The position numbers and the translations under genes are program-made. Shown here piece by piece: positions 19,504-49,489 of a DNA stretch of 64,000 bases. The first letter of the stretch is position 1, and every line of letters begins with the position of its first letter. The DNA lies in the sequence record PV660448; one strand, written 5' to 3'. This DNA is from Escherichia phage LF82-4. The notes below the pieces were generated by a model. The model saw only the letters and a program-made list of their open reading frames with translations. It made no database searches and was not told the origin of the DNA.

Positions 19504-19548
19504 TTTATTATCCAACGAGAGCATTATACTCTGCTCTCAAGAGTTTGT
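19504..19548 (-). repeat. 45-bp promoter cassette, copy A (identical to 49445-49489)
   Basis: tttattatccaacgagagcattatactctgctctcaagagtttgt; contains 7-bp inverted repeat GAGAGCA/TGCTCTC around TATAAT. Confidence 0.8.
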
Positions 19549-19551
19549 GCG

Positions 19552-19791
19552 TTATTTCGTGATAAGATAATGTAAATAGTTTGCTTGACGAACACTGATA
19601 TCAACACCCATATCAAAGATACCTTTATAGAACGGGTATTTGTTTTCAGTAGAATCTAGACTAAAAGCCTTTCCGCCACAACTAACGGTAATAGCATCAG
19701 TTAAAGTGTCATATACAAACTTAATAGTTGAGCCGTTCACTACAACTTCAAGACGTTTTTTCGATGTAATAATGTCTAATTCTTGTTCCAT
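19552..19791 (-). CDS. hypothetical protein (79 aa)
   Basis: track ORF. Confidence 0.55.
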   Translation of the reverse strand: MEQELDIITSKKRLEVVVNGSTIKFVYDTLTDAITVSCGGKAFSLDSTENKYPFYKGIFDMGVDISVRQANYLHYLITK

Positions 19792-19808
19792 GATATTCTC
19801 CTCAAATT

Positions 19809-19835
19809 GGTAGGAAGAAGTGTTATCTTCCTACC
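19809..19835 (-). promoter_or_regulatory. 10-bp inverted repeat hairpin GGTAGGAAGA/TCTTCCTACC between genes
   Basis: read directly; 18 nt upstream of ATG at 19791. Confidence 0.4.
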
Positions 19836-19846
19836 ATCATAAACTA

Positions 19847-20047
19847 TTAACCGAACTTTTTAGCGCCTTTCCAGCCTTCGTACATAATTGCGCAAGTCAA
19901 TAGCACAGCATGTTGGCATTCTTTGTATTTGTAAATCCAGAACCAGCGTAAAAAGTCTTCATCCTCAACACCGTTGAGTTTCATATTGGCAAAGAATTCG
20001 GCACGTTCTTCACGAAGCTTTTGCGATAACATAGATTCAGGATTCAT
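19847..20047 (-). CDS. hypothetical protein (66 aa)
   Basis: ATG at 20047 overlapping upstream stop (ATGA); track start 20059 is GTG. Confidence 0.5.
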   Translation of the reverse strand: MNPESMLSQKLREERAEFFANMKLNGVEDEDFLRWFWIYKYKECQHAVLLTCAIMYEGWKGAKKFG

Positions 20048-20178
20048 TTTGTATTCCACGCCCCATTTTCATCGATGAACTTAATCCAGTCATTTACAGA
20101 CCATTTAGTTGTATCACCCTTTGGATTAACATTTAAAGTATATAATCCTTGCTTAAAAAGCATTCGTTTGATATTCAT
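20044..20178 (-). CDS. small hypothetical protein (44 aa)
   Basis: ATG at 20178 with GAGGAAA RBS, 7 nt after upstream stop; longer track ORF overlaps neighbour by 86 nt. Confidence 0.4.
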   Translation of the reverse strand: MNIKRMLFKQGLYTLNVNPKGDTTKWSVNDWIKFIDENGAWNTK

Positions 20179-20185
20179 AATTTCC

Positions 20186-20479
20186 TCAACTGTAACGATA
20201 ACATTCGTTAGCTTTACGTTTGGCTTCAGTATGAGAAGTATTATAATCATACTCTTCTTTACTGTAAACATCTTTTTTCAACTTACGAACTTCTTTGCGG
20301 AGTTGTCGATTCATTTCATTCTTGACTTCAGAATCAACACCTTTCATACGTTTCCATTTATCTGAGCGGAAGATGTTTTCAACCATGTCTTTGTGGCTAA
20401 CACCGTCAGGAGCTTTACGCTTACCAAAATAGTCGTAATCGCGAACTTTCAAATCTTTACGACGATATGTTTTACCCAT
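20186..20479 (-). CDS. lysine/arginine-rich basic protein (97 aa)
   Basis: ATG at 20479 with GAGGT RBS; MGKTYRRKDLKVRDYDYFGKRK... Confidence 0.5.
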   Translation of the reverse strand: MGKTYRRKDLKVRDYDYFGKRKAPDGVSHKDMVENIFRSDKWKRMKGVDSEVKNEMNRQLRKEVRKLKKDVYSKEEYDYNTSHTEAKRKANECYRYS

Positions 20480-20486
20480 AAGTACC

Positions 20487-20735
20487 TCAGAGGTTGATTG
20501 ATACAATGCGTTTGATAAAATTCACTTCACTTACTGAAAGGTCTTTAAGTCCGATTGATTCTAAACGCTGAGTAAGCGTCAACATCGGGATATAGTCCCA
20601 ATGAGTTTTATTTGCTTGATAAGTACGGACGCCATTAGCAATTTCAACATGTAAATCGGAAATGGTAATGAATACCGGATGCTCGTCATTAACTTTAAGG
20701 GTTAGAACAACCTTCTTTGAATCTAAACTAATCAT
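20487..20735 (-). CDS. hypothetical protein (82 aa)
   Basis: ATGA overlap with upstream gene. Confidence 0.55.
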   Translation of the reverse strand: MISLDSKKVVLTLKVNDEHPVFITISDLHVEIANGVRTYQANKTHWDYIPMLTLTQRLESIGLKDLSVSEVNFIKRIVSINL

Positions 20736-20914
20736 GGCTTAATTTCCTTCGCAATTGAACAGAAGATACTACGGTCACAAAGCATTTCACCAATTTCTGG
20801 GTATTTGATTGAACGGTACCAAACATCCAGGCTTGAAACTCTGGTTATCTGTACTGCATTACCGTTGACAGAATAGTACTGGTCAACCTTAATTTCTTTA
20901 TCTTCAATTGTCAT
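20732..20914 (-). CDS. hypothetical protein (60 aa)
   Basis: ATG at 20914 with GAGGAAA RBS; longer track ORF starts further upstream. Confidence 0.45.
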   Translation of the reverse strand: MTIEDKEIKVDQYYSVNGNAVQITRVSSLDVWYRSIKYPEIGEMLCDRSIFCSIAKEIKP

Positions 20915-21064
20915 TTTGTTTTCCTCTATAGCAGATGGTTTAATCTTAACATATCTATCGAGGATGTAAACTGTTTTATGAAAATATTTTTGATTTGAGA
21001 GGGGCACAAGGAGATAGTGAAGTGAAGATTCCAATGGATTATATTAGAAATGAGATAAAGAAGA

Positions 21065-21079
21065 CCAGGCGGCACCTGG
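21065..21079 (-). terminator. GC-rich hairpin followed by U-rich tract, after nrdH-like gene
   Basis: minus strand CCAGG-UGCCG-CCUGG then UCUUCUUUAUCUC. Confidence 0.45.
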
Positions 21080-21403
21080 TCAATCTTCTATGATATCAGA
21101 GTCGTATCCTAATGAAATCAAGGACTTTTTAAACTCTGCAATATTCTTTTGTTTCTTATCATTTAAAAATATGACAGGATAACGAATATTAAGTGAAGTG
21201 AATCCTGCACGTTTAGCAAGAGATACGATTAAAGGACGGTCATATTCAATCTTACCATTATTAGTGAGGACTTTATAAAATGTATAAGGAGCATTGAGCT
21301 CCTTTAAAAGTTTTGTAACAGTATAACATCCTGGACAACGTCCAACTTCTTCAGGGATGCCATAAATTTCAATCTTGTTCTTTAAGTTCGAGTTTTGTTC
21401 CAC
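21080..21403 (-). CDS. glutaredoxin-like protein (NrdH-like), start codon unresolved
   Basis: CPGC redox motif in IEIYGIPEEVGRCPGCYTV; no in-frame ATG near domain start; candidate GTG at 21403 with AAGGAA upstream; overlaps upstream ORF. Confidence 0.5.
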   Translation of the reverse strand: MEQNSNLKNKIEIYGIPEEVGRCPGCYTVTKLLKELNAPYTFYKVLTNNGKIEYDRPLIVSLAKRAGFTSLNIRYPVIFLNDKKQKNIAEFKKSLISLGYDSDIIED

Positions 21404-21686
21404 GAGAAATAATTCCTTGGTAAGCCCAATAAGGAGGATTAACCGAATCCTCACCCGAGTTTTCTTCAGGAAAATAAACCTGGATAACGAAGCCGGATTC
21501 ATCAAATGTAAAATAAACTGTAGGCAGTTCACCTAACAATTCGGCACGAGCATTAATTTCTTCGAGGTCTTGTTCACGTCCAGCCCAAAAACTAGGATTT
21601 AGATTACATTCGTAAAAATAATAGTCATTACCGAACATATCAAACCCCTTCCAACTCTCTACCACGTACCGCTCAAAACTAATCAT
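21369..21686 (-). CDS. hypothetical protein (105 aa)
   Basis: track ORF. Confidence 0.5.
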   Translation of the reverse strand: MISFERYVVESWKGFDMFGNDYYFYECNLNPSFWAGREQDLEEINARAELLGELPTVYFTFDESGFVIQVYFPEENSGEDSVNPPYWAYQGIISRGTKLELKEQD

Positions 21687-21688
21687 AA

Positions 21689-21904
21689 TTAAGCCTTTTT
21701 ATCAAGAACAGAATTCAGTTTGTTAGTAATTTTATCCAGACGCTCATTGAACTCATTAGAAGATAAGCCCTTTTCTGGAGAAATTAAACTAATCACGAAA
21801 AATACACCAGTAAAAGGAATAAGAAAAATAGCTCCAACTGCCATAAACAGAAAGAATGTTACAGTTGTAAGAAAATCAGCTAAACCTTTACGAAATTTAT
21901 ACAT
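21689..21904 (-). CDS. small membrane protein (71 aa)
   Basis: hydrophobic segment FLTTVTFFLFMAVGAIFLIPFTGVFFVISLI. Confidence 0.55.
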   Translation of the reverse strand: MYKFRKGLADFLTTVTFFLFMAVGAIFLIPFTGVFFVISLISPEKGLSSNEFNERLDKITNKLNSVLDKKA

Positions 21905-21912
21905 ATTTACCC

Positions 21913-22023
21913 TTAATTAATTAACCAAGCGTTGATAAGCAAACCATATTGCGAATAAAATTCTGGGCCAAAATGAAAAATCATATCATTTATAGTATCC
22001 ATAATATAATTCAATTTAATCAT
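21913..22023 (-). CDS. small hypothetical protein (36 aa)
   Basis: ATG at 22023, 2 nt after nrdG stop; longer track ORF overlaps nrdG by 119 nt. Confidence 0.3.
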   Translation of the reverse strand: MIKLNYIMDTINDMIFHFGPEFYSQYGLLINAWLIN

Positions 22024-22486
22024 GTTTCCACACCCCATCGGTATTTGACCAAAGTCGCTGATTATCTGATCCTCGCCACAGCTTTTTGGTCGGAAGATTT
22101 TTCTCATACTTCCCATCAATAATAACATCAACATATTTAAGCATTTTTAGTTGTTTAATATCTTCAAACTTATATCCTGTCCACAACCAAATGCTTTTAT
22201 TGGGATAAAGATTTTTAATAGTTTGAACCACAGAGTGAATCACATCTCGGTTATCAGGATAGAGAGGGTCACCTCCGGTTATAGTCAATCCTTCTATATA
22301 ATCATTATTCAAACATTCAATTAATTGTTCTAGTGTTTCACCAGTGAATGGAATACCATTTCTAGCATTCCATGTTGATTTATTATAACACCCTTCGCAT
22401 TTATGCAAACAACCTGTGACGAAAAGAACGACCCTACAACCAGGGCCATTCACAAAATCGCAAGGATAAAATCTATCATAATTCAT
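22016..22486 (-). CDS. nrdG: anaerobic ribonucleotide reductase activating protein (radical SAM)
   Basis: 156 aa; Cys cluster CLHKCEGCYN; 4-nt overlap with nrdD. Confidence 0.9.
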   Translation of the reverse strand: MNYDRFYPCDFVNGPGCRVVLFVTGCLHKCEGCYNKSTWNARNGIPFTGETLEQLIECLNNDYIEGLTITGGDPLYPDNRDVIHSVVQTIKNLYPNKSIWLWTGYKFEDIKQLKMLKYVDVIIDGKYEKNLPTKKLWRGSDNQRLWSNTDGVWKHD

Positions 22487-24300
22487 TGGTGTTTAACCCT
22501 ATGCATGATTTCTTTATTTTTGCCGAGATTAAATCCACGTTCGTTCGGGTTCCCCAAATAACCGCACGTTCTTCTTATGGTGTTCATCTTTTTAGGATCA
22601 GTTTCTCCACAAACTGAACAAACAAATCCATTTTCAGTAGGAGTCATCTCATGGGTACTTCCACACGTAAAACATTTATCTACTGGCATGTTAACACCAA
22701 AATAATCTAAATGTTGTGCAGCATAATCCCACACGGCCTCAAGACCTTTTAAGTTATTTTTCATATCAGGAAGTTCAACATAAGAAATGTGACCACCTGT
22801 CGCAATGAAATGATATGGCGCTTCACGAGAAATCTTTTCAAACGGAGTAATATTTTCTTCTACTGAAACATGGAAACTATTAGTGTACCAGCCTTTATCA
22901 GTAACATCCTTTACACTTCCATATTTTTCTGTATCAAGTTTACAGAAGCGATAACAAAGGTTTTCAGCAGGAGTAGAATACAAGCTAAAAGCAAATCCGG
23001 TTCTTTCAGTCCACTGTTTAAGACGAGCATTCATTTTAGTTAAAATTTCTTGCCCAATATCACGACCGACAAGAATATTCAATTCGTGAATACCAATGTA
23101 TCCTAAAGACACTGAACTTCTACCGTTTTTAAATAACTCAATTATGTCGTCATCAGGTTTAAGACGAACCCCGAATGCACCTTCTTGGTAAAGAATAGGA
23201 GCAACAGTCGCTTTAACACCCTTTAAAGAACTAATTCTACACATCAAGGCTTCAAAACACAGATCCATTCGTTCATTAAATAATTCGATAAATTTCTGTT
23301 CATTGAACTGTGTTCCAATATAAGAATCTAATGCGATACGAGGAAGATTCAGTGTTACAACACCAAGATTATTACGTCCATCAAGAATTTCATTACCAGT
23401 CGAATCTTTCCATACGCTCAAGAAACTACGGCAGCCCATTGGAGAAACTGGAACTGAAGAACCGGTAATAGCTTTATTATTCTTAACAGAAATAATGTCA
23501 GGATACATTCTTTTGCTTGCACATTCTAACGCAAGTTGTTTAATATCATAGTTCGGATCATCTTTATAAAGATTAACACCTTCTTCAACAAACATAACAA
23601 GTTTAGGAAAAATAGGAGTTATTCCATCACGACCAAGACCTTTAATCCGATTTTTCAGAATTGCCTTCTGAATCATTCGTTCAGTCCAATCGGTTCCCGT
23701 ACCAAATGTAATTGTTACAAAAGGCGTTTGTCCGTTTGAACTAAAGAGAGTATTTACTTCATATTCATAAGCTTGGAACGCATCGTATACGTCTTTTTCT
23801 GTTTTAGATTGGGCATAATTCAACGCATCAGCGATTTGCCATTTTTCTGCATCCTCAATATGTTTTGCATAGGTGCGTTTAACATAAGGAGAAAGAACTT
23901 TATCGACATTCGCAAATGTAGTTCCGCCATACTGATGTGAAGCAACTTGTGCAGTAATTTGTGCCATAATTGCAGTAGCAACACCAATCGATTTAGGCGT
24001 TTCAATTTGAGCATTGCCTAATTTAAATCCATTCTCAAGCATCCCCTTTAAATCGACTAAACAGCAATTAGTAAATGGAAGAGCAGGAGAATAATCAATA
24101 TCATGCATATGAATGATTCCGCTTTCATGCGCATTCATAATAAAAGACGGGACCATATTTTTGGCAATGTGCTTAGACACAATACCAGCCATAAGGTCCC
24201 GTTGAGTTGGAAAAACACGAGAATCTTTATTAGCATTCTCGTTCAAAAGATCTTTATTAGTTTTATAAATTAATCCTTCAATTTCTTTTTCAATTTTCAT
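22483..24300 (-). CDS. nrdD: anaerobic ribonucleoside-triphosphate reductase (glycyl radical enzyme), uninterrupted
   Basis: 605 aa; C-terminal glycyl-radical motif RRTCGYLG and Zn-ribbon CFTCGS...CSVCG; single continuous ORF (no intron). Confidence 0.95.
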   Translation of the reverse strand: MKIEKEIEGLIYKTNKDLLNENANKDSRVFPTQRDLMAGIVSKHIAKNMVPSFIMNAHESGIIHMHDIDYSPALPFTNCCLVDLKGMLENGFKLGNAQIETPKSIGVATAIMAQITAQVASHQYGGTTFANVDKVLSPYVKRTYAKHIEDAEKWQIADALNYAQSKTEKDVYDAFQAYEYEVNTLFSSNGQTPFVTITFGTGTDWTERMIQKAILKNRIKGLGRDGITPIFPKLVMFVEEGVNLYKDDPNYDIKQLALECASKRMYPDIISVKNNKAITGSSVPVSPMGCRSFLSVWKDSTGNEILDGRNNLGVVTLNLPRIALDSYIGTQFNEQKFIELFNERMDLCFEALMCRISSLKGVKATVAPILYQEGAFGVRLKPDDDIIELFKNGRSSVSLGYIGIHELNILVGRDIGQEILTKMNARLKQWTERTGFAFSLYSTPAENLCYRFCKLDTEKYGSVKDVTDKGWYTNSFHVSVEENITPFEKISREAPYHFIATGGHISYVELPDMKNNLKGLEAVWDYAAQHLDYFGVNMPVDKCFTCGSTHEMTPTENGFVCSVCGETDPKKMNTIRRTCGYLGNPNERGFNLGKNKEIMHRVKHQ

Positions 24301-24770
24301 TTTAAACTCTTTCTAAGCTGCTTTTTGAATGAAGCTATTAATTGTGTTTTAGTATCAGATTCATTATATTCAAATCCTCTTTGAAGCATCTCGGTCATCA
24401 TTTCCTCTTTACCTAGTCTTGAGAACTCTTTAGTTTTGTCTGGAACAAAATTAGGATGGATATTATTATCAGAATAATCTTGTTTCAAATAAGCAAGAAG
24501 AGCTTCAAGCCATTCGAGGTAGTCGACATCACGTCCTTTAAGACCGGAACGGTTGAACTTATGCTTCATTTGACCTTCTGCTGCGTTGCACAGATTACAG
24601 AGTAATCCACGAACTCTACCGGCTTTTGGCCCGTTTAATTCATGGTCGTGGTCAAGATGGTTACCTTGAACATCAGGGTCTAATTCACGGTGGCAAATAG
24701 GACACTTACCATTCTGTGCATCATAAAATTTTTGTTTTTCTTCTTTATATTTTGCGCCTGATAATAACAT
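24297..24770 (-). CDS. 49: endonuclease VII (Holliday junction resolvase)
   Basis: 157 aa; Zn-binding CPICHREL and HLDHDHE...LLCNLCN motifs. Confidence 0.9.
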   Translation of the reverse strand: MLLSGAKYKEEKQKFYDAQNGKCPICHRELDPDVQGNHLDHDHELNGPKAGRVRGLLCNLCNAAEGQMKHKFNRSGLKGRDVDYLEWLEALLAYLKQDYSDNNIHPNFVPDKTKEFSRLGKEEMMTEMLQRGFEYNESDTKTQLIASFKKQLRKSLK

Positions 24771-24805
24771 GATAAACCCTTACCTTAAATAGATAAGGGT
24801 ATTTA

Positions 24806-25231
24806 TTAACTTAAACGTCTTTCTAAATATTCAATGTATTCTGCGGCTGCTTGCATCAGGTTACCTTCATAGCCGTCGTTATTTTCTTGTCCAGCTAATT
24901 TAGCTAATGCATAAGAAATTCGTTCACCTTCGAATTCACCAAGTTTACTACCTAGCACATCAGCAATATCAGCCGAATCAATTTCTTCGAGTTCATCTAT
25001 TGAATGGGATTCCCAGAAGCACCAAAGAGAAGTATCACGGTCATAGATGCAAAGTTTCTCACCTGTGTTCAACATCACTTCGATAATGCCATGGTCGCCA
25101 TAACCATCTTCGGTAGTAGTACCAATTACCTTGAGGATTGTTCCTTTCTTTAATTCAGGAAACTTGACTTGTAGTTCTTCGTCTTCTTTAACAATCTTGA
25201 ACCATTTACCGCGAGTTTCAGAAATATTCAT
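24806..25231 (-). CDS. hypothetical acidic protein (142 aa)
   Basis: ATG at 25231; alternative ATG at 25369 would add a 46-aa extension. Confidence 0.5.
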   Translation of the reverse strand: MNISETRGKWFKIVKEDEELQVKFPELKKGTILKVIGTTTEDGYGDHGIIEVMLNTGEKLCIYDRDTSLWCFWESHSIDELEEIDSADIADVLGSKLGEFEGERISYALAKLAGQENNDGYEGNLMQAAAEYIEYLERRLS

Positions 25232-25232
25232 A

Positions 25233-25403
25233 TCAATATTCTCTATAAAAGTTACGATGAGAACGTTTAGCTTTGCGAAGCTGACGTTTAGTAGGACGAA
25301 CTGTAAATAGTTGTCCAGAGAAAAAATTCGAATCGGTTTTAATAAGCAAATACCAATCATGCTTGCCATTTTTTAATAAACGGTACAATAATTTAACTTG
25401 CAT
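25233..25403 (-). CDS. small basic protein (56 aa)
   Basis: ATG at 25403 with GGAAGAG RBS; track start is TTG. Confidence 0.35.
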   Translation of the reverse strand: MQVKLLYRLLKNGKHDWYLLIKTDSNFFSGQLFTVRPTKRQLRKAKRSHRNFYREY

Positions 25404-25531
25404 AATAATCTCTTCCCATTTCCATATCAATTAATTCATTTATTGAAGGTTCATCATAACATGGTTCTTCGTCGTTGTAAACCGTTTCGACGTCTGGCTC
25501 GACAGTCTCCCATCGAGCAGAATACCACGGT

Positions 25532-25867
25532 TTAACCCCGGAGTTTATTGAGCTCTTCATAATCAATCCAGGATTCTAGCCCTGACGGCAGGTCACATTC
25601 AATGTTCCACAGAAGCTCTTCAATGGCTTGCAGGCGATTATATTCTTCAACAGTAATAGTAACCATTGTTTCAGGCTTTTTAACCATCATGTCATTCATC
25701 AGAATGTACAGATCTTCACAAACAGCCGGGTCGTCCCATGTCCATATTTCAGCATCTCGAACCAATGAAGTCGGAATAGAATTTAAAACTTCAAGCTTAG
25801 TAGGAGCGTCAGGACCGAGAAGAGTTGCTACAAATTTATATGCTTTGGCGAAATCAATATCGTTCAT
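25532..25867 (-). CDS. hypothetical protein (111 aa)
   Basis: track ORF. Confidence 0.55.
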   Translation of the reverse strand: MNDIDFAKAYKFVATLLGPDAPTKLEVLNSIPTSLVRDAEIWTWDDPAVCEDLYILMNDMMVKKPETMVTITVEEYNRLQAIEELLWNIECDLPSGLESWIDYEELNKLRG

Positions 25868-25885
25868 TTAAAATATTCTCGCAGT

Positions 25886-26182
25886 TTATTGTTCTACCCA
25901 GGCACAGGAAACTTCGAAATCAGGACCACCGTATTCCCAGTGATATTCACCAACAGGAATCCAGTCACCGTGCTCGTTTTCTTCGTAGTCTTCAGGTTCA
26001 AGACCAACGAATCGCCATTGAACACCTATGATTCGATTACCCATTAATATACGAAATTCACCCCATGGATTATCGATAGCATATTGGATATCGTTCTTAG
26101 CACGAGAACACATTTCTTGATATAACAAAGCTTCTAATTCGCCCTGATCATAAGGGCCCGGGAAAGTTAAATCAATACTCAT
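25886..26182 (-). CDS. hypothetical protein (98 aa)
   Basis: 4-nt overlap with nrdC. Confidence 0.55.
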   Translation of the reverse strand: MSIDLTFPGPYDQGELEALLYQEMCSRAKNDIQYAIDNPWGEFRILMGNRIIGVQWRFVGLEPEDYEENEHGDWIPVGEYHWEYGGPDFEVSCAWVEQ

Positions 26183-26442
26183 TTAAAATATTCTCGCAGT
26201 TGGTCAAATCCACCAATATGACTTCCATCAGGAGCAAATACTTGAGGCATAGTCAATCCAACTTGTGATTCACGTCCTAGTTTATTCAGAAGCTCGTCAA
26301 TTTTTTCTTCATCAAATACACCTTTCTCTGGCATAACATTAATGAATTCGAATGGCTGTTTCTTAACAGTCAGCAATCGTTTCGCATTATCACAATAAAT
26401 GCATTTATGAATAGTAGAGTCATACCCGTACACTTTAAACAT
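26179..26442 (-). CDS. nrdC: glutaredoxin/thioredoxin (NrdC)
   Basis: 87 aa from ATG 26442 (MFKVYGYDSTIHKCIYCDNAKRLL...); CIYC redox motif; matches T4 NrdC as recalled. Confidence 0.9.
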   Translation of the reverse strand: MFKVYGYDSTIHKCIYCDNAKRLLTVKKQPFEFINVMPEKGVFDEEKIDELLNKLGRESQVGLTMPQVFAPDGSHIGGFDQLREYFK

Positions 26443-34640: not shown

Positions 34641-34659
34641 TTTGTTCTCCGTTCGTTTT

Positions 34660-34698
34660 GGTAGGACTACTATAACATAGTCCTACCAAGATGTAAAC
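34660..34698 (-). promoter_or_regulatory. promoter-early stem-loop, family taggactactataacatagtcct
   Basis: GTTTAC -35; 9-bp inverted repeat GTAGGACTA/TAGTCCTAC around TATAGT-like -10. Confidence 0.5.
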
Positions 34699-34931
34699 TA
34701 CCGATTGTGTTTTAAATGTTGATAAAGTTCTTCAACTTGTTTAGGGTCCAAAACAATTAGGTCATTTTCTTGGCGAAGATAAAGCCATCCCTTATCCCCA
34801 GGACCATTTTTACAAAACATCGCCACCATATCATCATCTTCAGCGCTTTCAGGTAAAAGTTCAAGCACACCGTCTTCAGATTTTCCAGTATAATCGTAAA
34901 GCATAATATCCTCACATAATCTCGTTAACAT
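34698..34931 (-). CDS. hypothetical protein (77 aa)
   Basis: track ORF. Confidence 0.5.
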   Translation of the reverse strand: MLTRLCEDIMLYDYTGKSEDGVLELLPESAEDDDMVAMFCKNGPGDKGWLYLRQENDLIVLDPKQVEELYQHLKHNR

Positions 34932-35147: not shown

Positions 35148-35155
35148 TGCTAAAT

Positions 35156-35186
35156 GCAAAAAAGCCCCAACCTTTCGGAAGGGGCT
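35156..35186 (-). terminator. intrinsic terminator, copy 1 of 3 identical hairpins
   Basis: minus strand AGCCCCUUCCGAAAGGUUGGGGCU followed by UUUUUUG; 5 nt after stop of 35191-35748. Confidence 0.6.
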
Positions 35187-35772: not shown

Positions 35773-35780
35773 TATTTATA
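35773..35780 (-). promoter_or_regulatory. late promoter TATAAATA
   Basis: exact T4 late consensus on minus strand, 25 nt upstream of ATG at 35748. Confidence 0.6.
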
Positions 35781-35809
35781 CAAAAAGCCCCAACCTTTCG
35801 GAAGGGGCT
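35781..35809 (-). terminator. intrinsic terminator, copy 2 of 3 identical hairpins
   Basis: same 24-bp hairpin plus U-tract, 7 nt after rI stop. Confidence 0.6.
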
Positions 35810-38884: not shown

Positions 38885-39343
38885 CTAGATTTTAATCACT
38901 GCTTTAGAAGCTTTTCCTGGTAGTCGTTTACTGTTAATAATAGCCATTCTGCATTGAAGAGTCTTCATTTTGAATGCTGGATTTTCGCGACAAACTGTAA
39001 GTCCTAACCAAAGATTTCCATCAGTTATTTCTAAACGGCCTGGGCGATATTCGACACCTTCGACAAAATCTTCATCAACATCTGGACGTGCCGGCATTGA
39101 TAAAAATTCTGCAACTTCTTTAGCATGATTTTTTACTTTATGAAATAATTCAAAAACGTAATTCTCATCTATTTCTCTCTGGATGGCACGATCTAAGAGA
39201 TGTTGAGAATACTTGATATGAAAGCCTGGTAGTCCAAGAGACTTTGCAGCATCTTTTATACCGGCATTTATTTTGCGGAACTCCGTTTCAAAGATTCGAC
39301 GGAGTTTATTACGGCGGATAAAAACTTCCGAATTGATAGTCAT
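38885..39343 (-). CDS. regB: endoribonuclease RegB
   Basis: 152 aa from ATG 39343 (MTINSEVFIRRNKLRR...); matches T4 RegB as recalled; track start is TTG. Confidence 0.85.
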   Translation of the reverse strand: MTINSEVFIRRNKLRRIFETEFRKINAGIKDAAKSLGLPGFHIKYSQHLLDRAIQREIDENYVFELFHKVKNHAKEVAEFLSMPARPDVDEDFVEGVEYRPGRLEITDGNLWLGLTVCRENPAFKMKTLQCRMAIINSKRLPGKASKAVIKI

Positions 39344-42611: not shown

Positions 42612-42893
42612 CTATTTTTCTGAAGCGCCTGAAATATATTTTTCAAGACGTTGTTTCATCAGCGAGCCGTTCTTAGCGATTTCTTCCGGTTTATCGCACA
42701 TACGTAACAAGGCTTCAAGCTTAGCGATATCGCTGGTACGTTCAAATTTGCGAGTATCTATCTTACTAGCAAGTTCAGAAATACGTGCTAATAGACTTTC
42801 GGCTTCAACCAAAGCTGCACCTAGCTTAGTTGCAAATGTGTCAGTAGCTTCGTTAAGAATAGATTCTGATAAAAATTCACTATATGTTTTCAT
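42612..42893 (-). CDS. internal head protein (capsid-targeting sequence)
   Basis: ATG at 42893 gives [13 protein letters not shown]...; overlaps e stop (ATGA). Confidence 0.7.
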
Positions 42894-43378
42894 ATATACG
42901 CTTTCCAAGTTCCTGTTTTAAATGTTGAGATTACGCGTTTCGCGCGATTAGGTGTCTGACGATACCATTTAGATTGGGCGAGATTTACTGCCGCTTCATC
43001 CCAACGTTTCTGTTGAAGCATACGAAGAGAATTAGTAAAACCAGCAACGCCTGCTACACCCATTTGGAAGACCATATTGACCAATGCACATCGACGAACC
43101 GCGTCTAAAGAATCATATACCGGTTTAAGTTTAGCATTACCCAAGATTCCGCGAACGGCTTTATCGACGTCTTCGTTAAATAGCTTTTCAGCCTCATCAA
43201 GGGTAATTGTACCGTTGCATTTACGACCGATCATTCTGTCAAGTTCAGCTTTAGCTACGGCTAAAGACGGGTTCTTTGTTACTAAATGGCCTATGCCAAT
43301 CGTCCAAAAGCCTTCAGTGTCTTTGTATAAAGTCAGTCTAAGACCTTCGTCATTACGAAGCATTTCAAATATATTCAT
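42890..43378 (-). CDS. e: lysozyme (endolysin)
   Basis: 162 aa from ATG 43378 ([32 protein letters not shown]...); matches T4 lysozyme as recalled; track start is GTG inside upstream hairpin. Confidence 0.95.
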
Positions 43379-43380
43379 AA

Positions 43381-43404
43381 TACCTCCCACGTTTATAGGA
43401 GGTA
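43381..43404 (-). promoter_or_regulatory. stem-loop sequestering the lysozyme Shine-Dalgarno (7-bp stem UACCUCC/GGAGGUA, loop UAUAAACGUG)
   Basis: read directly; SD GGAGG is the 3' arm, 4 nt before ATG; loop carries TATAAA late-promoter-like element. Confidence 0.6.
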
Positions 43405-43412
43405 TTTATTAC

Positions 43413-43871
43413 TTATAGGATGGTAGTGAGCACCTTGTATAACGATTTGCCCATTACATATTCCCATTGAGAAGGTTTAATTAAAGCGAATGCATCAAAT
43501 TCAGGAATCTGTCGTCCGTCTGGGAATGTATGATAGGAATTACAAACACTGTTTCTGAATTGCTCATGCTCTACAGGGATGGTATATAGGAACAGATGAA
43601 TATTCTTATTGTCTGAGTAATGATGTTCACCTAGGTCTTTCAGGAAGGCAGGGTCATATTGTGTAAACCCAGTTTCTTCTTCGCATTCACGAATAGCGGC
43701 TTCAATAGGAGATTCGCCAGGTTCGACACGGCCTTTAGGAATATCCCACCGATGAGCTAATGCACCTTTAGGACGAGAACCAGTTACACGACCCATGAAT
43801 AATTCTTTATTTTCGGTAAGGAAAATAATACCGGCAGATAGTTCTTTCACTTTATTTTTCTTACTCATCAT
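43413..43871 (-). CDS. nudE: Nudix hydrolase
   Basis: Nudix box GRVEPGESPIEAAIRECEEETGF. Confidence 0.85.
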   Translation of the reverse strand: MMSKKNKVKELSAGIIFLTENKELFMGRVTGSRPKGALAHRWDIPKGRVEPGESPIEAAIRECEEETGFTQYDPAFLKDLGEHHYSDNKNIHLFLYTIPVEHEQFRNSVCNSYHTFPDGRQIPEFDAFALIKPSQWEYVMGKSLYKVLTTIL

Positions 43872-44097
43872 CTCGGTCCCATGATTTGGCCATTAATTCA
43901 GACATAAATTCTTCAATGCGCGTTTCTTTAGATGGACTTTCACTATTAGAGACCGCAAGTTTGTAATCTGCAATAGGACGGAACAAATCAAGGTCCATAT
44001 TAAGATCGTCTTTGATTTGTTCTTCAGATACGTCTTTATCATACGTATACAAATAACTATCACCCGATTCTGATTTAACGTAAATTGCTATGCTCAT
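43861..44097 (-). CDS. hypothetical acidic protein (78 aa)
   Basis: track ORF. Confidence 0.5.
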   Translation of the reverse strand: MSIAIYVKSESGDSYLYTYDKDVSEEQIKDDLNMDLDLFRPIADYKLAVSNSESPSKETRIEEFMSELMAKSWDRDDE

Positions 44098-44492
44098 CTC
44101 AAATTCCTACATTCGGTAATAAAACGTTCAACTTCATTATTCTTGGCCTTTATCTTGTCTTTACGTTCCTGTAAACTACTTTTAACAAGATTAATAATGA
44201 TGCCTATAGTACCTCCACCAATAATACCACCAATAATACTTACGATAGTAGATGCTAATAATATAGCGATAATATCTGGTATGGCAAAGGCACTTACTTT
44301 AGTACTAAAAAACCATACCGACGGTACAAATATAATCCATCCTGTTATCCATTGGCACTTATTGAAAAACTTTTCAAGCTCAGCTTGAGTTGTTCTTATT
44401 ACTTCATCGATAGGTTGATATCCATTAATGTATCTGTTCACGATAATACCTGCTGGCTGGTCGATTTTAAATTCTTGACAAATACGTTTCAC
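44094..44492 (-). CDS. membrane protein (132 aa)
   Basis: two TM helices incl. glycine-zipper IIGGIIGGGTIGIII. Confidence 0.55.
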   Translation of the reverse strand: MKRICQEFKIDQPAGIIVNRYINGYQPIDEVIRTTQAELEKFFNKCQWITGWIIFVPSVWFFSTKVSAFAIPDIIAILLASTIVSIIGGIIGGGTIGIIINLVKSSLQERKDKIKAKNNEVERFITECRNLR

Positions 44493-44573
44493 TAAGTAGG
44501 ATGGACATCCTGTCCAATCTACTGAATAGTACGAAATACCTTCATTACTTAGACCAATATGTTTTGTTAATCA

Positions 44574-45260
44574 TTACCAGCCTTCCATAGGGAATTCCAG
44601 ATAAACTTGAGCATTGACACGAATTTCATTGGTAATCTTTTTAACTCGGTCTGTATTACGAGATACACGTCCGAACCAACGCCATCCATTACTAATTGCA
44701 CGAGAACCAGTGTGCCATGTTTGCCAATCAAACTGAAGAAGAGTACGGTCCGGAGCTTCCCATTTCTCTAGTTCACCTTTTTCAATTTTTTCGAGGACTT
44801 CTTTGTGCCATTGGCGATAGATAAGTTCGCCATCAGGAATCTGACTGAACTCTGCAGTTCCTGTTGCAAAATGAGTAGGACACACGTCAGCGTTAACAAG
44901 ACCAAGAATATGTTCAGAATGGTAACGAGGGTTATCATAGTCAGGTTGTCCTGCAGTAATAAAGTGTTGGCCGACTGGAATATCAGGGCGAGGAACATCG
45001 TCATGGTGATATCCAGGAATAGCAGGATACCAACCAGGCATCAGCATATGAACCCGAGAATCAAATACAACATGTTGATTAGTCCAATCAATTGGGAGAT
45101 TGGCAATAAAGCTACGAGTAATAGGACCGCCGTTATCCCAAGCAAAACTCAAATCACAGTTAAAGAACATTGGTTCATTTTTGATTTGGTCATTTTGTAC
45201 GTTATGAGCAAAACCACCTACTGCGCGAGCTTGACTATTAAACACTTTAGAACTATTCAT
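44574..45260 (-). CDS. hypothetical protein (228 aa)
   Basis: ATG start; His/Asp-rich segment YHHDDVPRP (possible metal site), no firm family. Confidence 0.55.
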   Translation of the reverse strand: MNSSKVFNSQARAVGGFAHNVQNDQIKNEPMFFNCDLSFAWDNGGPITRSFIANLPIDWTNQHVVFDSRVHMLMPGWYPAIPGYHHDDVPRPDIPVGQHFITAGQPDYDNPRYHSEHILGLVNADVCPTHFATGTAEFSQIPDGELIYRQWHKEVLEKIEKGELEKWEAPDRTLLQFDWQTWHTGSRAISNGWRWFGRVSRNTDRVKKITNEIRVNAQVYLEFPMEGW

Positions 45261-45261
45261 A

Positions 45262-45567
45262 TTATTTTCCTCGACATTCTTTAATGAAATTTTCTAGATT
45301 GGTAGATTCAATAGCTTTTTTACGAGCTTCTGCATGTTCTTCTTCAGACAATTTACATTTATAATTAACCCAGACGTTATGGTCAAAACTAGTCGTGGCA
45401 TATAATAACAATGCTCCAACGAATAGCAAAAACGGCGATAAGAATACAAAACCAGGAACACCATCCATATCGTAAGCCTTTTGTAATACTGCAACAGAAA
45501 GGGCTGCGTAAAAAGGTGATGCAAATATTGTTAAAAGACCAATTCGGTTGGTTTCGCCTAATTTCAT
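45262..45567 (-). CDS. membrane protein (101 aa)
   Basis: two hydrophobic helices; GAGGAGAAT RBS. Confidence 0.55.
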   Translation of the reverse strand: MKLGETNRIGLLTIFASPFYAALSVAVLQKAYDMDGVPGFVFLSPFLLFVGALLLYATTSFDHNVWVNYKCKLSEEEHAEARKKAIESTNLENFIKECRGK

Positions 45568-45588
45568 AATATTCTCCTCATGTTTTTA

Positions 45589-45626
45589 ATAGGACTACTA
45601 TAACATAGTCCTATAATTGTGTAAAC
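45589..45626 (-). promoter_or_regulatory. promoter-early stem-loop, family taggactactataacatagtcct
   Basis: GTTTAC -35; inverted repeat ATAGGACT/AGTCCTAT. Confidence 0.5.
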
Positions 45627-45638
45627 AGTTTTGTGAAG

Positions 45639-46595
45639 TTATTTGAAAGGTTTTACCATATGGAAATTTTGTTTGAAACGTTTGACGTAATCATTTTTGC
45701 CGAGCTTATGATACATAGCCACTACTTCATAATAGTTCTCGTATGCGTACTCACGGAACCATCCGGAGGTGATGCTTGTACAGACTTTTTCCAATGCCAT
45801 CATAAAACTGGCTTCAGGGTTAATTTTAAAGTTATTAGGAATCTGAGAACGTTCTAATGCTAATACACATGATTCTTCGTATACACCGGCCAATTTGACC
45901 ATTTCTGGTAATGATTCGAACTTCTCGCGTGAGGTCATGACTTCAGAACCATCTTTCATATAAAATGTATACGCTGGACGGTCTGTTAGTGCAATGGCTT
46001 CATGAATAGTATCATGGTCATATGTATAGATGTCATCTTTAAAGAACGCACTTTTAGAAGTGTCAAGAACCGGGTGAGCATAGTTCAAAGTTTCTTTCTG
46101 GCGTTTCAACATAATTTCAGTAAGTTCATCGTTCAGTGTAACACCTTTACCACGAAGATACTGAATATGGTTCATAGTCTTTAAAAAGAATGGATTATTT
46201 TTCTTGAAACGATGAGACATCTTAATTGCAAGACATATCTCAGGAGTTGCCCAGTAAAACCCAGTCAAACGGTCTTTAGTCAAATTTTTCTTGGCGTATT
46301 TTAAAAGGTCATAAGAAGATGTGAAATCTTCAGGAGTGAGTTCACCGACTAATTCACGGACATTAGTGATTGCCGGAACAATATATGCTTCAAAATGAGT
46401 TTCACGTCCATTATGGAAGCATTTGAAAACTTGGACATCAGGGTTATCTTGGTGAACATATACACCCATCATTTGATTTTTGAATACATTCCAAGAACCT
46501 TGGTCCGCAATAAAGTCCCAATCACTATTTTTGATAGCGCTAGAATCAATAAGGCCATGGTAGTGAAGTGCACGAGAACCAATAACTAACATCAT
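45639..46595 (-). CDS. hypothetical protein (318 aa)
   Basis: track ORF; N-terminal GSRALHYHG...SDWDF weakly nucleotidyltransferase-like. Confidence 0.55.
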   Translation of the reverse strand: MMLVIGSRALHYHGLIDSSAIKNSDWDFIADQGSWNVFKNQMMGVYVHQDNPDVQVFKCFHNGRETHFEAYIVPAITNVRELVGELTPEDFTSSYDLLKYAKKNLTKDRLTGFYWATPEICLAIKMSHRFKKNNPFFLKTMNHIQYLRGKGVTLNDELTEIMLKRQKETLNYAHPVLDTSKSAFFKDDIYTYDHDTIHEAIALTDRPAYTFYMKDGSEVMTSREKFESLPEMVKLAGVYEESCVLALERSQIPNNFKINPEASFMMALEKVCTSITSGWFREYAYENYYEVVAMYHKLGKNDYVKRFKQNFHMVKPFK

Positions 46596-46620
46596 AATAT
46601 TTTCCTCGAATTTAGATTAC

Positions 46621-46872
46621 TTAAATTTCGCGACATGCGATATTATATTCATCCCAGAGGTCGTCATGTGAAGCCTCTACCAATGGAACGATTGTACCAT
46701 TTATATCTTCATTATAAGGGCAAATTGTACAGTGCGCATCTTCGAATCGGATGCCTTTGTGTTCAGATTTTTTATAACGCATATCGAATATCTTTGCAAA
46801 CTTTTCACGAGTAATAGTTTTAGCAACTACTTCGGTTCCTATACTTTCGTAATAAACCATTGTTGTCTCCAT
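46621..46872 (-). CDS. hypothetical protein (83 aa)
   Basis: track ORF. Confidence 0.5.
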   Translation of the reverse strand: METTMVYYESIGTEVVAKTITREKFAKIFDMRYKKSEHKGIRFEDAHCTICPYNEDINGTIVPLVEASHDDLWDEYNIACREI

Positions 46873-46880
46873 TTAATTTG

Positions 46881-46918
46881 ATAGGACTACTATAACATAG
46901 CCCTATCTTGTTGTAAAC
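46881..46918 (-). promoter_or_regulatory. promoter-early stem-loop, family taggactactataacatagtcct (one arm mismatch)
   Basis: GTTTAC -35; gataggactactataacatagccctatc. Confidence 0.45.
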
Positions 46919-46922
46919 TGTT

Positions 46923-47120
46923 TTAGCAAGAATAACTAGATGATACCCAGCCTTGAACAGTGATACTATTGTGGGATAATGAGATCGCGTCCTGGAGATT
47001 CAGACCTGCATTATCTTCAATCCACAATGTAACTTCTTCACGCTCTTCGGTTGCAATCTGGAACAGGTTTTCTAGAGCAGCTACGGCCGTACGTACAGCA
47101 CAATCTAATTCACGAGACAT
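46923..47120 (-). CDS. small protein with conserved C-terminal W-V-S-S-S-x-x-C motif (paralogue 1)
   Basis: ends ...QGWVSSSYSC. Confidence 0.5.
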   Translation of the reverse strand: MSRELDCAVRTAVAALENLFQIATEEREEVTLWIEDNAGLNLQDAISLSHNSITVQGWVSSSYSC

Positions 47121-47129
47121 ATGATTTCC

Positions 47130-47402
47130 TTAACAAGTGTGAGAAGATGCAACCCAACCACCAGTTTCGAGGCTCAGGTTGTAGTCGTATTGGTAAACGT
47201 CAGCCCATTCGGCATAACCGTTTTTTGTACAACGTTCAAGATCGGCTTTAAGATGTCCGGGTGAATGATAGGTTCCACCCATACCATAAGCTGGGTACAA
47301 GTTGAATGTTGTGTTTTGTTTATCAGCAATTTCTTTGGCAGCCTCAATAGCTGCATAGATTTTTGCTACAGCTTCAGCCAGTTCGGTTTGTTCTTTAGAC
47401 AT
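47130..47402 (-). CDS. small protein with conserved C-terminal W-V-[AS]-S-S-x-x-C motif (paralogue 2)
   Basis: ends ...GGWVASSHTC. Confidence 0.55.
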   Translation of the reverse strand: MSKEQTELAEAVAKIYAAIEAAKEIADKQNTTFNLYPAYGMGGTYHSPGHLKADLERCTKNGYAEWADVYQYDYNLSLETGGWVASSHTC

Positions 47403-47411
47403 AATGATTCC

Positions 47412-47717
47412 TTAGCACAACGCAGAAGATGAAACCCAAGCACCTTCAGTAATAACGTATCCATTACCTTCACGCTTAACATCGCCGCCATTATTTTCAA
47501 TTTCATCTTTCATCCACTGGGATACGATTTCACCCTTAGGATAATAAGTACGACCGCTACCATAATCACCTACAGAAAATGATACGGCATATTGGTCTGC
47601 GATCTTTGTTGCTTCTTCTTCGATACGTTCAGCTTGATTCAGAAGTTTATAAATTGCATCTGAAGCGGATTTGGCATCATTAAACTCTGGTACTTTAATT
47701 TCAATAATCTTACTCAT
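47412..47717 (-). CDS. small protein with conserved C-terminal W-V-S-S-S-x-x-C motif (paralogue 3)
   Basis: ends ...GAWVSSSALC. Confidence 0.55.
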   Translation of the reverse strand: MSKIIEIKVPEFNDAKSASDAIYKLLNQAERIEEEATKIADQYAVSFSVGDYGSGRTYYPKGEIVSQWMKDEIENNGGDVKREGNGYVITEGAWVSSSALC

Positions 47718-47776
47718 TTTCTACATTCCTTAATAAAGTTTTCGATTGTTTCATTTTCACGTTTAGCTAGGAGTTC

Positions 47777-47806
47777 ATTATAACTAATCATTTGAGAAGC
47801 GTAAAC
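47777..47806 (-). promoter_or_regulatory. early promoter (GTTTAC -35, TATAAT -10)
   Basis: minus strand GTTTACGCTTCTCAAATGATTAGTTATAAT. Confidence 0.5.
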
Positions 47807-47815
47807 AGCATAAAT

Positions 47816-48208
47816 TCAGTTAAGGCTTTTGCATCTTATTTCCTTAACGAATTCCATAGCTTCTTCATATTCATACTTTTTAACAGCTTCATCATACTGA
47901 GCTTGGGCTTTTGCGCACTGAACTTTCCATTCTCTTAATCGGGCTCTGTGATGACGGCCTTGGTACCAATATCCCATCCAGTTAATAGGCATTAATAAAA
48001 ATGGTACAATAAGTGGTGCGACGAACATTAATGAAAATGCTGCATCAGACGATATAACTTCACTAGAATCTAAAACGGCTCCTATAATCATAAAGATTAA
48101 AAATGCTAAAGCTAAAATAGGGCCAAATAGTACTTCATTTGGGATTAATTTACGCTTGTATTCATACGCCCAGGGCTTACTTGGCATGTACAGGGTTGGC
48201 TTTGACAT
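47816..48208 (-). CDS. membrane protein (130 aa)
   Basis: ATG at 48208; two TM helices; track start is TTG. Confidence 0.5.
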   Translation of the reverse strand: MSKPTLYMPSKPWAYEYKRKLIPNEVLFGPILALAFLIFMIIGAVLDSSEVISSDAAFSLMFVAPLIVPFLLMPINWMGYWYQGRHHRARLREWKVQCAKAQAQYDEAVKKYEYEEAMEFVKEIRCKSLN

Positions 48209-48779
48209 ATTCTCTACATTCCATAATAAATTGCTCAAGGATTAAATTGTTAGTGAAATTAGGACTAACAACCATAGTTTCATAAAGCGCATCAATAGCA
48301 CTTAAAGCATCAACTCTCTTAAGCAAAGGCTTGCCTTCATACATAGTTTCAGAATCGACGATTAACGTAAAGTAGTATTTTTTATTATCGACTAGAACTT
48401 CTGTATCGATATAAAACATATTAGACCTCAGAAGCTTATCTCTAAAACCATAATAATCTTCAGAGCGTTCGCTGATATATTCCCATTCAGTGTTTAAACA
48501 ACAAACAGACCACGTAGGAGCAACGAAATCAGTGAATCTAATATCATAGTCTGCAACTAGTTTAGCAATAGCTCCGATATCATGAATCATAATACCTGGG
48601 GCTAATAAAGATTTTCTGCTATGGCTAGCCGTTTTCTCAGTGGTTTCATAAGAAGACGACCAATACCATTTACGTCCGGTTGCAACATATCGTAATGAAT
48701 CAACTAAAGACGTAGGTGGATTTACCTTATCTCGGAACTCTTCGAACATTGAGTCAATATCATTATTTTGGTTTCGCAT
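48177..48779 (-). CDS. hypothetical protein (200 aa)
   Basis: ATG at 48779 with AAGGAG RBS; track start is TTG. Confidence 0.55.
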   Translation of the reverse strand: MRNQNNDIDSMFEEFRDKVNPPTSLVDSLRYVATGRKWYWSSSYETTEKTASHSRKSLLAPGIMIHDIGAIAKLVADYDIRFTDFVAPTWSVCCLNTEWEYISERSEDYYGFRDKLLRSNMFYIDTEVLVDNKKYYFTLIVDSETMYEGKPLLKRVDALSAIDALYETMVVSPNFTNNLILEQFIMECREYVKANPVHAK

Positions 48780-48802
48780 GTTAACTCCTTTATTATCCAA
48801 AA

Positions 48803-48820
48803 GGAGGACCGGAGTCCTCC
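48803..48820 (-). terminator. hairpin (7-bp GC-rich stem) followed by UUUUGG
   Basis: minus strand GGAGGAC-UCCG-GUCCUCC UUUUGG, after stop at 48829. Confidence 0.5.
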
Positions 48821-48828
48821 GTATTATT

Positions 48829-49422
48829 TTATTTCAAAGAGTTAATATATTCTTGTACATCAGCAGAAGTGGTTTCGACACCGGCTGGAGTGCCATTGAA
48901 CGTTTCAACACGAGTCAGAGTGTCTTCGATATCAACCTTAGTCAGTGCAGCGATTTCAATCACATCATCAGCCGTAGAGATACCAAGGGCATTGGCTGCT
49001 CGAGTTTCACGAATGTATTCGAGTTTGATTGCCAGGTTCTGACGAGCATCATCAAGTTCAACCACCTTACGAGCAATTTCAATTCGCATAGCGGCATACC
49101 CATCAGCTTTTGTATTAAGTTGTTCGGCAGTTCGACGATACAGAAGACCAAGCTTAGCATGCATGGTAACATCTTGTCCTTCAGCCAGGAGCTTACGAAT
49201 TTCACGTTCCTTAGAAGCGGCTTGCTTGTTCTTTTCATTAACAAGTTCGCGAATACGTTTTTCTTCATTAATAGATTTAACAGAAGCCGTTTTTAGTTCT
49301 TTGATTTGGGTAATCAACTTATCTGCAGCTGCGTTATACTGTTCTTCGACAGTCAGATTTTTAGCCATAGCAGTACCCAGTTTAGTGCGGATGAATTCAA
49401 CAAGTTTCTTCAGTGTGTTCAT
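48829..49422 (-). CDS. hypothetical coiled-coil protein (197 aa)
   Basis: ATG at 49422; track start is TTG. Confidence 0.55.
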
Positions 49423-49444
49423 ATTATTACCTTTCAATTGGTGG

Positions 49445-49489
49445 TTTATTATCCAACGAGAGCATTATACTCTGCTCTCAAGAGTTTGT
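49445..49489 (-). repeat. 45-bp promoter cassette, copy B (identical to 19504-19548)
   Basis: minus strand TTTACA -35 ... TATAAT -10 embedded in GAGAGCA/TGCTCTC stem-loop. Confidence 0.8.

Follow-up and report, generated by a model that had tools for sequence, protein, structure and literature searches.

Why are two unrelated genes, 30 kb apart in one phage genome, preceded by the same 45 bp down to the last letter? The question is raised by a 64,000-nucleotide stretch of Escherichia phage LF82-4 (sequence record PV660448), which we refer to in its entirety as the window and which derives from an RB69-like T-even phage (Mosigvirus). Here, we present evidence that the repeat likely represents two copies of a compact T4-type early cassette, in which a promoter core, a hairpin and a RegB site are combined in front of unrelated early genes. 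The repeat is real but ordinary: this kind of cassette is known, and the corresponding RB69 sites have already been predicted to be promoters. Our additions are modest and consist of a hairpin backed by covariation and of the packaging of promoter, hairpin and RegB site into one unit. For the window phage, the activity of the promoters, the function of the hairpin and cleavage by RegB are predictions from sequence.

On exact comparison, the 45-mer TTTATTATCCAACGAGAGCATTATACTCTGCTCTCAAGAGTTTGT has two copies in the window, copy 1 at 19504-19548 and copy 2 at 49445-49489, and no third copy is present in these 64 kb at ≤3 mismatches. The first-pass annotation, which had reported an exact 45-bp duplication, is borne out in that the identity is neither shorter nor imperfect; 45 nt is the maximal exact repeat, with differing bases on either side (t at 19503 versus g at 49444, and g at 19549 versus a at 49490). 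Weaker likeness extends beyond these limits to 82% over 78 nt (repeat family D10). A 45-mer repeat was matched in 0 of 100 dinucleotide shuffles, and on this result we rejected an origin by chance or low complexity. Both copies lie upstream of minus-strand genes, for which we use the RB69 gene names, and on this coding strand the repeat reads ACAAACTCTTGAGAGCAGAGTATAATGCTCTCGTTGGATAATAAA. Copy 1 separates an ORF075c homologue from gene 55.2, and copy 2 separates frd.3 from e.6. At both loci, the stop codon of the upstream gene ends 3 nt before the repeat, and the ATG of the downstream gene follows after 18 nt (55.2) or 22 nt (e.6), close to the distance of about 20 nt given initially. The initial view that the downstream genes are unrelated and do not share descent also stands: BLASTP detected no similarity between the 110-aa product of 55.2, a DUF7570 protein, and the 197-aa product of e.6. 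A covariance model of the cassette family matches the window at exactly these two copies, with 74.2 bits for copy 1. Searching the window with Rfam at gathering thresholds returned only a tRNA and assigned the cassette to no RNA family.

The cassette is organized around a promoter core. Positions 21-26 form a perfect TATAAT, which is invariant across 14 family variants, and the start of transcription is predicted at about position 33; the repeat, therefore, would begin at about −33 and end at about +13 relative to this start in a sigma-70 early promoter, and it holds the 3′ half of the −35 box, the 17-nt spacer and TATAAT. At copy 2, the three bases preceding the repeat complete a TTTACA −35 box, giving the full promoter TTTACA-17-TATAAT (49464-49492, minus strand), which was called by a promoter scan and agrees with the sigma-70 consensus at 11 of 12 positions. 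T4-type early promoters, which unmodified host RNA polymerase transcribes right after infection, are characterized by a GTTTAC-like −35 at −36 to −31, a TAtAAT −10 and A-rich upstream sequence, and those of RB69 additionally by C-rich positions −3 to −1 (PMC1524935). Copy 2 has these features (aaaaaataATTTACA...TATAAT, with CTC at −3 to −1), coincides with the predicted RB69 promoter Pe:72069, with a score of 25.3 (PMC1524935), and its site is annotated as a promoter in the GenBank records of NBG1 and ATK47/48. Copy 1 has the same TATAAT (19523-19528, minus strand), which lies in the hairpin loop, and lacks a −35 box of the T4 early type: the sequence at this place, CGCACA (19546-19551, minus strand), is half outside the repeat and matches TTGACA/TTTACA at three of six positions. 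The promoter scan did not call this site, and the orthologous RB69 site received a hidden Markov model (HMM) score of only 8.9, which is in the lowest class (PMC1524935). Judged by these sequences, the promoter of copy 2 is probably strong and that of copy 1 probably weak because of its CGCACA. A MotA-dependent middle promoter at copy 1 was rejected after inspection by eye, which revealed no TGCTT box at the right distance.

Several lines of evidence support that a hairpin is embedded in the promoter core. First, positions 10-17 can pair with positions 26-33 in an 8-bp stem, leaving an 8-nt loop that contains the −10 box (copy 1, 19516-19539; copy 2, with the same stem, 49457-49480; both minus strand). 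The fold has a stability of −12.6 kcal/mol (z = −3.2), and the stem arms lie at −23 to −16 and −7 to +1, i.e., the 3′ end of the hairpin is at the predicted +1. Second, a comparison of 14 distinct variants drawn from six genera showed 94.6% of the cells paired, compared to 33-58% when the partner is slid, and five of the eight stem pairs have changed on both sides; none of 500 shuffles reached the observed score, a statistic that overstates independence because the 14 sequences include close relatives. Third, the sense strand of these variants has nine G.T wobbles versus one A.C, and the sense fold is the more stable one in 13 of 14 variants. The strand bias argues that the hairpin acts in sense RNA, i.e., in readthrough RNA from the upstream gene, and we consider action in RNA probable. 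Because transcription is predicted to start at about position 33, the hairpin would not be part of the promoter's own transcript and would only be present in this readthrough RNA. Moreover, of the 22 promoter-like sites that the window has on its minus strand, 9 show a hairpin of ≤−8 kcal/mol around the −10 box, compared to 2.2% of background 30-mers (p = 4e-10). Thus, a hairpin around the −10 box is a general architecture in the window phage.

The sequence that follows the hairpin, GGAUAAUAAA, matches the consensus for cleavage by RegB/S1. Strong RegB sites conform to GG*AG/U-R-A-Y-A-R-A-A (PMC3014915), and we scored the two copies against the 11 positions of GGA[G/U]RAYARAA (PMC3014915, PMC1702504). 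Copy 1 (GGAUAAUAAAA, 19503-19513, minus strand) agrees at all 11 positions in the GGAU form, and copy 2 (GGAUAAUAAAC, 49444-49454, minus strand) at 10 of 11. Both sites are intergenic and contain the elements of the GGAGAAUAAAA consensus, which are GGA, G/U and an A-rich 7-mer. On the sense strand, the window contains the full motif four times, compared to 0.52 expected, and the other three occurrences are GGAG Shine-Dalgarno sites. A RegB/S1 site should also be single-stranded, with the cut falling between GG and A. In minimum free energy folds, no pairing involves the A-rich 7-mer, and the GGA triplet takes part in a weak outer helix of 3 bp (U7-A38, C8-G37, U9-G36), which one of the centroid structures lacks. 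In T4, the motB leader is a model RegB substrate with the experimentally cut site GGAG-U-A-U-A-A-A-A (PMC1702504), and the tail of the T4 family member is exactly this site, GGAGUAUAAAA. Only 2 of 30 intergenic GGAU motifs in T4 are cut, those of ORF 55.2 and motB.2 (PMC1702504); the T4 55.2 leader contains TTGGATAATAAAAT, which is identical to the tail of copy 1 over 14 nt and likewise lies directly 3′ of a hairpin. The RegB endoribonuclease is encoded within the window (regB, 38885-39343, minus strand; Pfam REGB_T4, E = 1.5e-68). Together, these observations are consistent with RegB cleavage of the cassette tail in the window phage. As a separate observation, the UAA-triplet-rich tails (19503-19513 and 49444-49454) and start regions (19483-19495 and 49420-49432), AUAAUAAA and AAUAAUAUG, resemble the RB69 RegA consensus AAUAAUAAUAA obtained by SELEX (PMC3014915); on this resemblance, translational repression of 55.2 and e.6 by RegA is conceivable.

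The first-pass annotation was right in assigning the repeat to a regulatory cassette, which we can now specify as promoter core, hairpin and RegB-type site. It had also taken the perfect identity to imply recent copying or gene conversion and had proposed a presence/absence comparison of related phages; recent copying was not supported. The element is present at both loci in ~170 Mosigvirus records, with positions fixed across the genus. At the 55.2 locus, two allele classes exist. Class I (the window, LF82, p000v, TH12, phi25-307 and others) has 0-1 differences from the e.6 copy, and class II (RB69, ST2, mar005p1, MRostami and ECO111) has 3-4 differences, including the compensatory pair C16.G27 to A.T; the 3′ end of the upstream gene also differs. 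Position 33, which is a stem position (T10.G33 or T10-A33), is G or A at both loci. Cross-tabulating these alleles by allele-specific BLAST revealed all four combinations and no within-genome association (7/17 versus 2/8; Fisher p = 0.66), and we therefore rejected within-genome concerted evolution. Because the alleles combine freely, the G/G state of the window is just one assortment. Overlapping constraints imposed by the promoter core, the stem and the RegB/S1 site cover all 45 nt and would on their own suffice to hold the copies identical. In this way, the cassette shows why a noncoding 45-mer can be kept without a single mismatch in a phage genome that is AT-rich and recombines fast: each base serves at least one of three signals.

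A duplication or gene conversion so recent in the window genome that the copies have had too little time to diverge would account for several observations: no other promoter pair in the window is as similar as the two copies (45/45 versus 37/45 for the next pair), RB69-type phages carry the more distant class II allele at the 55.2 locus, the same G33/A33 polymorphism segregates at both loci, and there is a mosaic boundary at the 5′ edge of the element. These observations are countered by the presence of the element at both loci throughout the ~170 records, by class I phages in which the flanks have diverged up to ~6% while the copies are still 0-1 differences apart, and by the independent assortment of the alleles. 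The shared polymorphism may have arisen by parallel mutation, which is plausible for G33A as it converts a G.U to an A-U pair in the stem, and class I and class II elements differ by 9%, which is the same as the divergence of the region (90.4% identity). Thus, we regard recent duplication or conversion as rather unlikely, and the identity is probably not explained by it; rather, the identity probably reflects shared origin and multilayer constraint, possibly aided by occasional recombination between the copies. That the 55.2 locus underwent recombination or conversion at an earlier time is plausible in view of the divergent class II allele and the sharpness of the mosaic boundary at the 5′ edge, and the data cannot separate such an event from ordinary divergence.

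Some observations weigh against the reading of both copies as complete cassettes. Most GGAU sites in T4 resist RegB (PMC1702504), the site of copy 2 has a C at position 11, and RegB of RB69 has diverged from that of T4 (PMC3014915); the close relatives in the covariation set have been mentioned. A role of the hairpin as terminator is doubtful because it is followed not by a U-tract but by GUUGGAUAAUAAA, in contrast to a Rho-independent terminator, and because it was called neither by a simple scan of the window nor by TransTerm in RB69. Copy 1, moreover, is without a TGn motif and, as a promoter, may be weak or dead and have been retained for its RNA functions. Taken further, the element at locus 1 might be no promoter at all and serve exclusively as an RNA module of hairpin and RegB site within a polycistronic ORF075c-55.2 transcript, as in T4. 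The poor −35 box, the missing scan call and the low score of the RB69 orthologue all point in this direction, as does the T4 55.2 leader (PMC1702504), in which the same downstream gene is preceded by a UUCG hairpin, U5 and GGAUAAUAAAA inside the 3′ end of gene 55.3, and in which the GGAU site is cut by RegB experimentally. However, this T4 hairpin has a UUCG tetraloop and is without promoter signals, whereas the hairpin upstream of 55.2 in the window is promoter-embedded, with a −10 box and an entire spacer identical to those of the strong e.6 promoter; in addition, T4 early promoters use extra contacts (the UP element and other conserved positions), and a weak −35 need not abolish activity (PMC2988021). 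We, therefore, give the RNA-only alternative a minor share of the probability. The inverted repeat could also be read at the DNA level, as a palindromic operator that binds a dimeric repressor and shuts off early promoters. The dyad symmetry is perfect and centered on the −10 box, and early promoters are shut off within a few minutes post infection in an AsiA-independent manner (PMC2988021). Yet, the half-sites change freely in sequence provided that they stay complementary. RB69 alone has three different stems, which argues against a sequence-specific DNA-binding protein since one protein could not read them all; other promoter sub-families of the window have unrelated stems at the same position, and the wobble bias of the sense strand is not expected of a duplex site. 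An operator is, therefore, very unlikely. Least credible is that a mobile element left the repeat as its footprint or terminal repeat, or that a homing endonuclease targets it. Homing endonucleases are numerous in T-even phages, and identical short repeats do lie scattered over the genome, but neither copy adjoins an endonuclease or transposase gene, target-site duplications and terminal inverted repeats beyond the internal hairpin are lacking, and the positions of the element are fixed across the genus.

We, therefore, favor the early cassette of promoter core, hairpin and RegB site, and suggest how it might function. Transcripts from the cassette promoter would begin at or just after the 3′ arm of the hairpin. 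In readthrough RNA, the hairpin would most likely act as an attenuator and/or as a 3′-end barrier protecting the upstream cistron. The RegB site, GG^AUAAUAAA(A), would lie at +4 to +14, and a cut at this site would separate upstream from downstream RNA and strip the 5′ triphosphate end off the promoter's own transcripts; the stripped 5′ end would help the early shut-off of 55.2 and e.6 expression. Copy 2 is expected to drive e.6 as a one-gene unit that is closed by an intrinsic terminator (48803-48820, minus strand; −14.4 kcal/mol followed by UUUU), which was found by a terminator scan and corresponds to the RB69 TransTerm call 'e.5<--e.6'. Because proper terminators follow both e.6 and ndd, each of these genes looks like a one-gene unit running from cassette promoter to intrinsic terminator. 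This layout recalls the morons of lambdoid phages, which are promoter-gene-terminator insertions that have a GC content unlike that of the host phage and arise by illegitimate insertion. Like morons, e.6 and ndd look like small units with their own transcription signals; unlike for morons, composition is uniform here and exchange appears to use homology between cassettes.

The cassette is not confined to the window phage. BLAST with the 45-mer identified 716 phage records; a Mosigvirus genome has up to four matching places, a T4-type genome one or two. Copy 1 plus flanks is 100% identical in LF82-series phages, p000v, CEV1, UGJNEcP1/2 and phage 55, and copy 2 is identical in RB69, NBG1, ST2, mar005p1 and MRostami. 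RB69 has four members, upstream of 55.2, e.6, ndd and ORF231c, and the covariance model finds exactly these four. All four are among the early promoters predicted by HMM in 2006 (Pe:42515, Pe:72069, Pe:136687 and Pe:165022; PMC1524935), in a paper that treats them as ordinary early-promoter hits and does not mention hairpins, palindromes or near-identity. A weak extra match of the covariance model at 63434-63473 of RB69 (L010 13434-13473; 21.7 bits, E = 0.16), upstream of RB69ORF123c, may represent a degenerate fifth member. Homologues are present in at least six T4-like genera, and other genera carry the element near ndd or pseT; a scan of IMG/VR for the family yielded three contigs only, among them the informative contig L009. 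The T4 homologue immediately precedes motB and reads GTTTAC-AAACTCTTGGGACCAGAG-TATAAT-GGTCCC (GTTTAC-N18-TATAAT), and primer-extension stops have been reported at the motB promoter (PMC1702504). The motB leader (PMC1702504; Sanson & Uzan 1993) has the same layout as the cassette, GTTTACAAACTCTTG-stem-GAGTATAAT-stem-GTGGAGTATAAAA, and is identical to it at 36 of 45 positions; it differs in its downstream gene, in its stem (GGGACCA/TGGTCCC) and in having GGAG rather than GGAU, and T4-type genomes have one or two cassette copies compared to four in the RB69 type.

The element also coincides with mosaic boundaries. At the 55.2 locus, the 50 nt upstream of the element are 52-54% identical to class II phages, compared to 92-100% from the element onward. 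The region of the 79-aa gene upstream of copy 1 is 52-78% identical, and a second low-identity block coincides with the next intergenic cassette (19795-19845). This neighboring cassette lies upstream of the 79-aa gene, contains a hairpin (GTTTAT ... GGTAGGAAG/CTTCCTACC; 19808-19836, minus strand; −18.1 kcal/mol, z = −3.9), and has Pe:42816 as its RB69 counterpart. The position of the two low-identity blocks at cassettes suggests that the 79-aa gene is a swapped module flanked by two cassettes. Similarly, the metagenomic contig IMGVR_UViG_3300030021_000002 (L009) contains, at 13982-14300, an extra 93-aa open reading frame (ORF; 14006-14287) between frd.3 and the e.6 element, with both junctions at the ACAAAC box. 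The left junction of this insert is a chimeric promoter, TAAtgcACAAAC + gccaaggatggtgat, similar to a different promoter sub-family that the window has near 49967.

Such behavior is reminiscent of promoter early stem-loop (PeSL) elements (PMC2839356, PMC4122927), which according to passages of these papers are also repeated in plastic early regions and located at the junctions of insertions, deletions or replacements between relatives. The cassette shares with them a sigma-70-like early promoter (11/12 for copy 2; a perfect −10 and a 3/6 −35 for copy 1), a stable stem-loop within the promoter (an 8-bp stem with the −10 box in the loop), a placement between the stop codon of one gene and the Shine-Dalgarno sequence and ATG of the next, many copies in plastic early regions (22 promoter-like sites, several repeat families and four members in RB69) and a tie to insertions, deletions and replacements (the step from ~53% to ~93% identity and the L009 insert). 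PeSLs are further marked by demonstrated promoter and terminator activity and by mini-circles that form when copies recombine. By its sequence, the element fits a PeSL-type early cassette that also carries a RegB-type site, and the weak −35 of copy 1 resembles the 'degraded' PeSLs in passages of PMC4122927. There are also differences. In the passages searched of PMC2839356 and PMC4122927, PeSLs are described for RB49/phi1, PST/T4 and nt-1/KVP40 and not for RB69-type phages, and a RegB/S1 site immediately 3′ of the stem is not mentioned; the stem described here is AT/GC-mixed, without the polyG/polyC or U-tract of the PeSLs in these passages, making strong termination doubtful, and, unlike the descriptions given there, is backed by covariation and sense-strand bias. 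The cassette, thus, joins three separate literatures, on predicted RB69 early promoters, on PeSL shuffling cassettes and on RegB target sites, and provides a testable model for how early genes newly acquired by T4-like phages may be equipped with both expression and timed decay of their mRNA. A bolder and, in our estimation, doubtful extension is that the 45-nt unit is a mobile 'express-then-destroy' module, comprising a promoter, a hairpin protecting the upstream 3′ end and a RegB site, and that recombination at the conserved −35-proximal ACAAAC box and at the RegB tail carries it from one intergenic site to another in T4-like phages. If true, this module would drive the shuffling of gene cassettes and provide a uniform early-on/early-off program for any downstream gene, and the −10 hairpin could tie readthrough transcription to how active the embedded promoter is.

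The genes adjoining the two copies are all on the minus strand. Downstream of copy 1, the 55.2 homologue (110 aa, 19153-19485) was assigned by Pfam (PF24454, E = 1.8e-39) and by synteny with RB69; upstream of it is the 79-aa RB69ORF075c homologue (19552-19791), an ORF that ends with a TAA stop. Downstream of copy 2 is the e.6 homologue (197 aa, 48829-49422), an ORF named after the RB69 annotation, and upstream is frd.3 (75 aa, 49493-49720; Pfam Phage_FRD3, E = 1.3e-38). At copy 1, the ATG within TATA-ATG of the −10 box opens a 123-aa ORF (19153-19524) across the promoter. This longer form of 55.2 is annotated in some GenBank records (e.g., phi25-307, with a 372-nt coding sequence), while the RB69 55.2 start is the downstream ATG, which has a Shine-Dalgarno sequence. 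The use of the ATG internal to TATAATG is, thus, a recurrent annotation error that sometimes stretches gene 55.2 over the promoter.

The source phage is itself a mosaic, because the window is 100% identical to LF82-series phages at 19100-19900 and at most 97.7% identical to any record at 40-60 kb, where the LF82 series, Shf125875 and TH12 are equally close. At 51795-51866, Rfam and ARAGORN both find tRNA-Met only. At the syntenic place in RB69 and LF82-1, a tRNA-Arg is annotated beside tRNA-Met; this tRNA-Arg may be missing or degenerate in the window phage. Elsewhere in the window, a second and larger sub-family of early promoters with hairpins is present at 34653-34704, 45581-45632, 46873-46924 and 53190-53241, and also at 49733-49784, 52810-52861 and 53545-53596. 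Its members read GTTTAC..GATAGGACTATGTTATAGTAGTCCTATC on the minus strand, are identical at 33-36 of 45 positions and have −10 hairpins of −13 to −19 kcal/mol. Finally, a near-identical GC-rich terminator-like hairpin occurs three times, at 35150-35186, 35773-35809 and 50385-50421 (AGCCCCUUCCGAAAGGUUGGGGCUUUUU on the minus strand; −16 to −20 kcal/mol), forming a repeated terminator cassette that escapes the simple terminator scan because of an internal mismatch.

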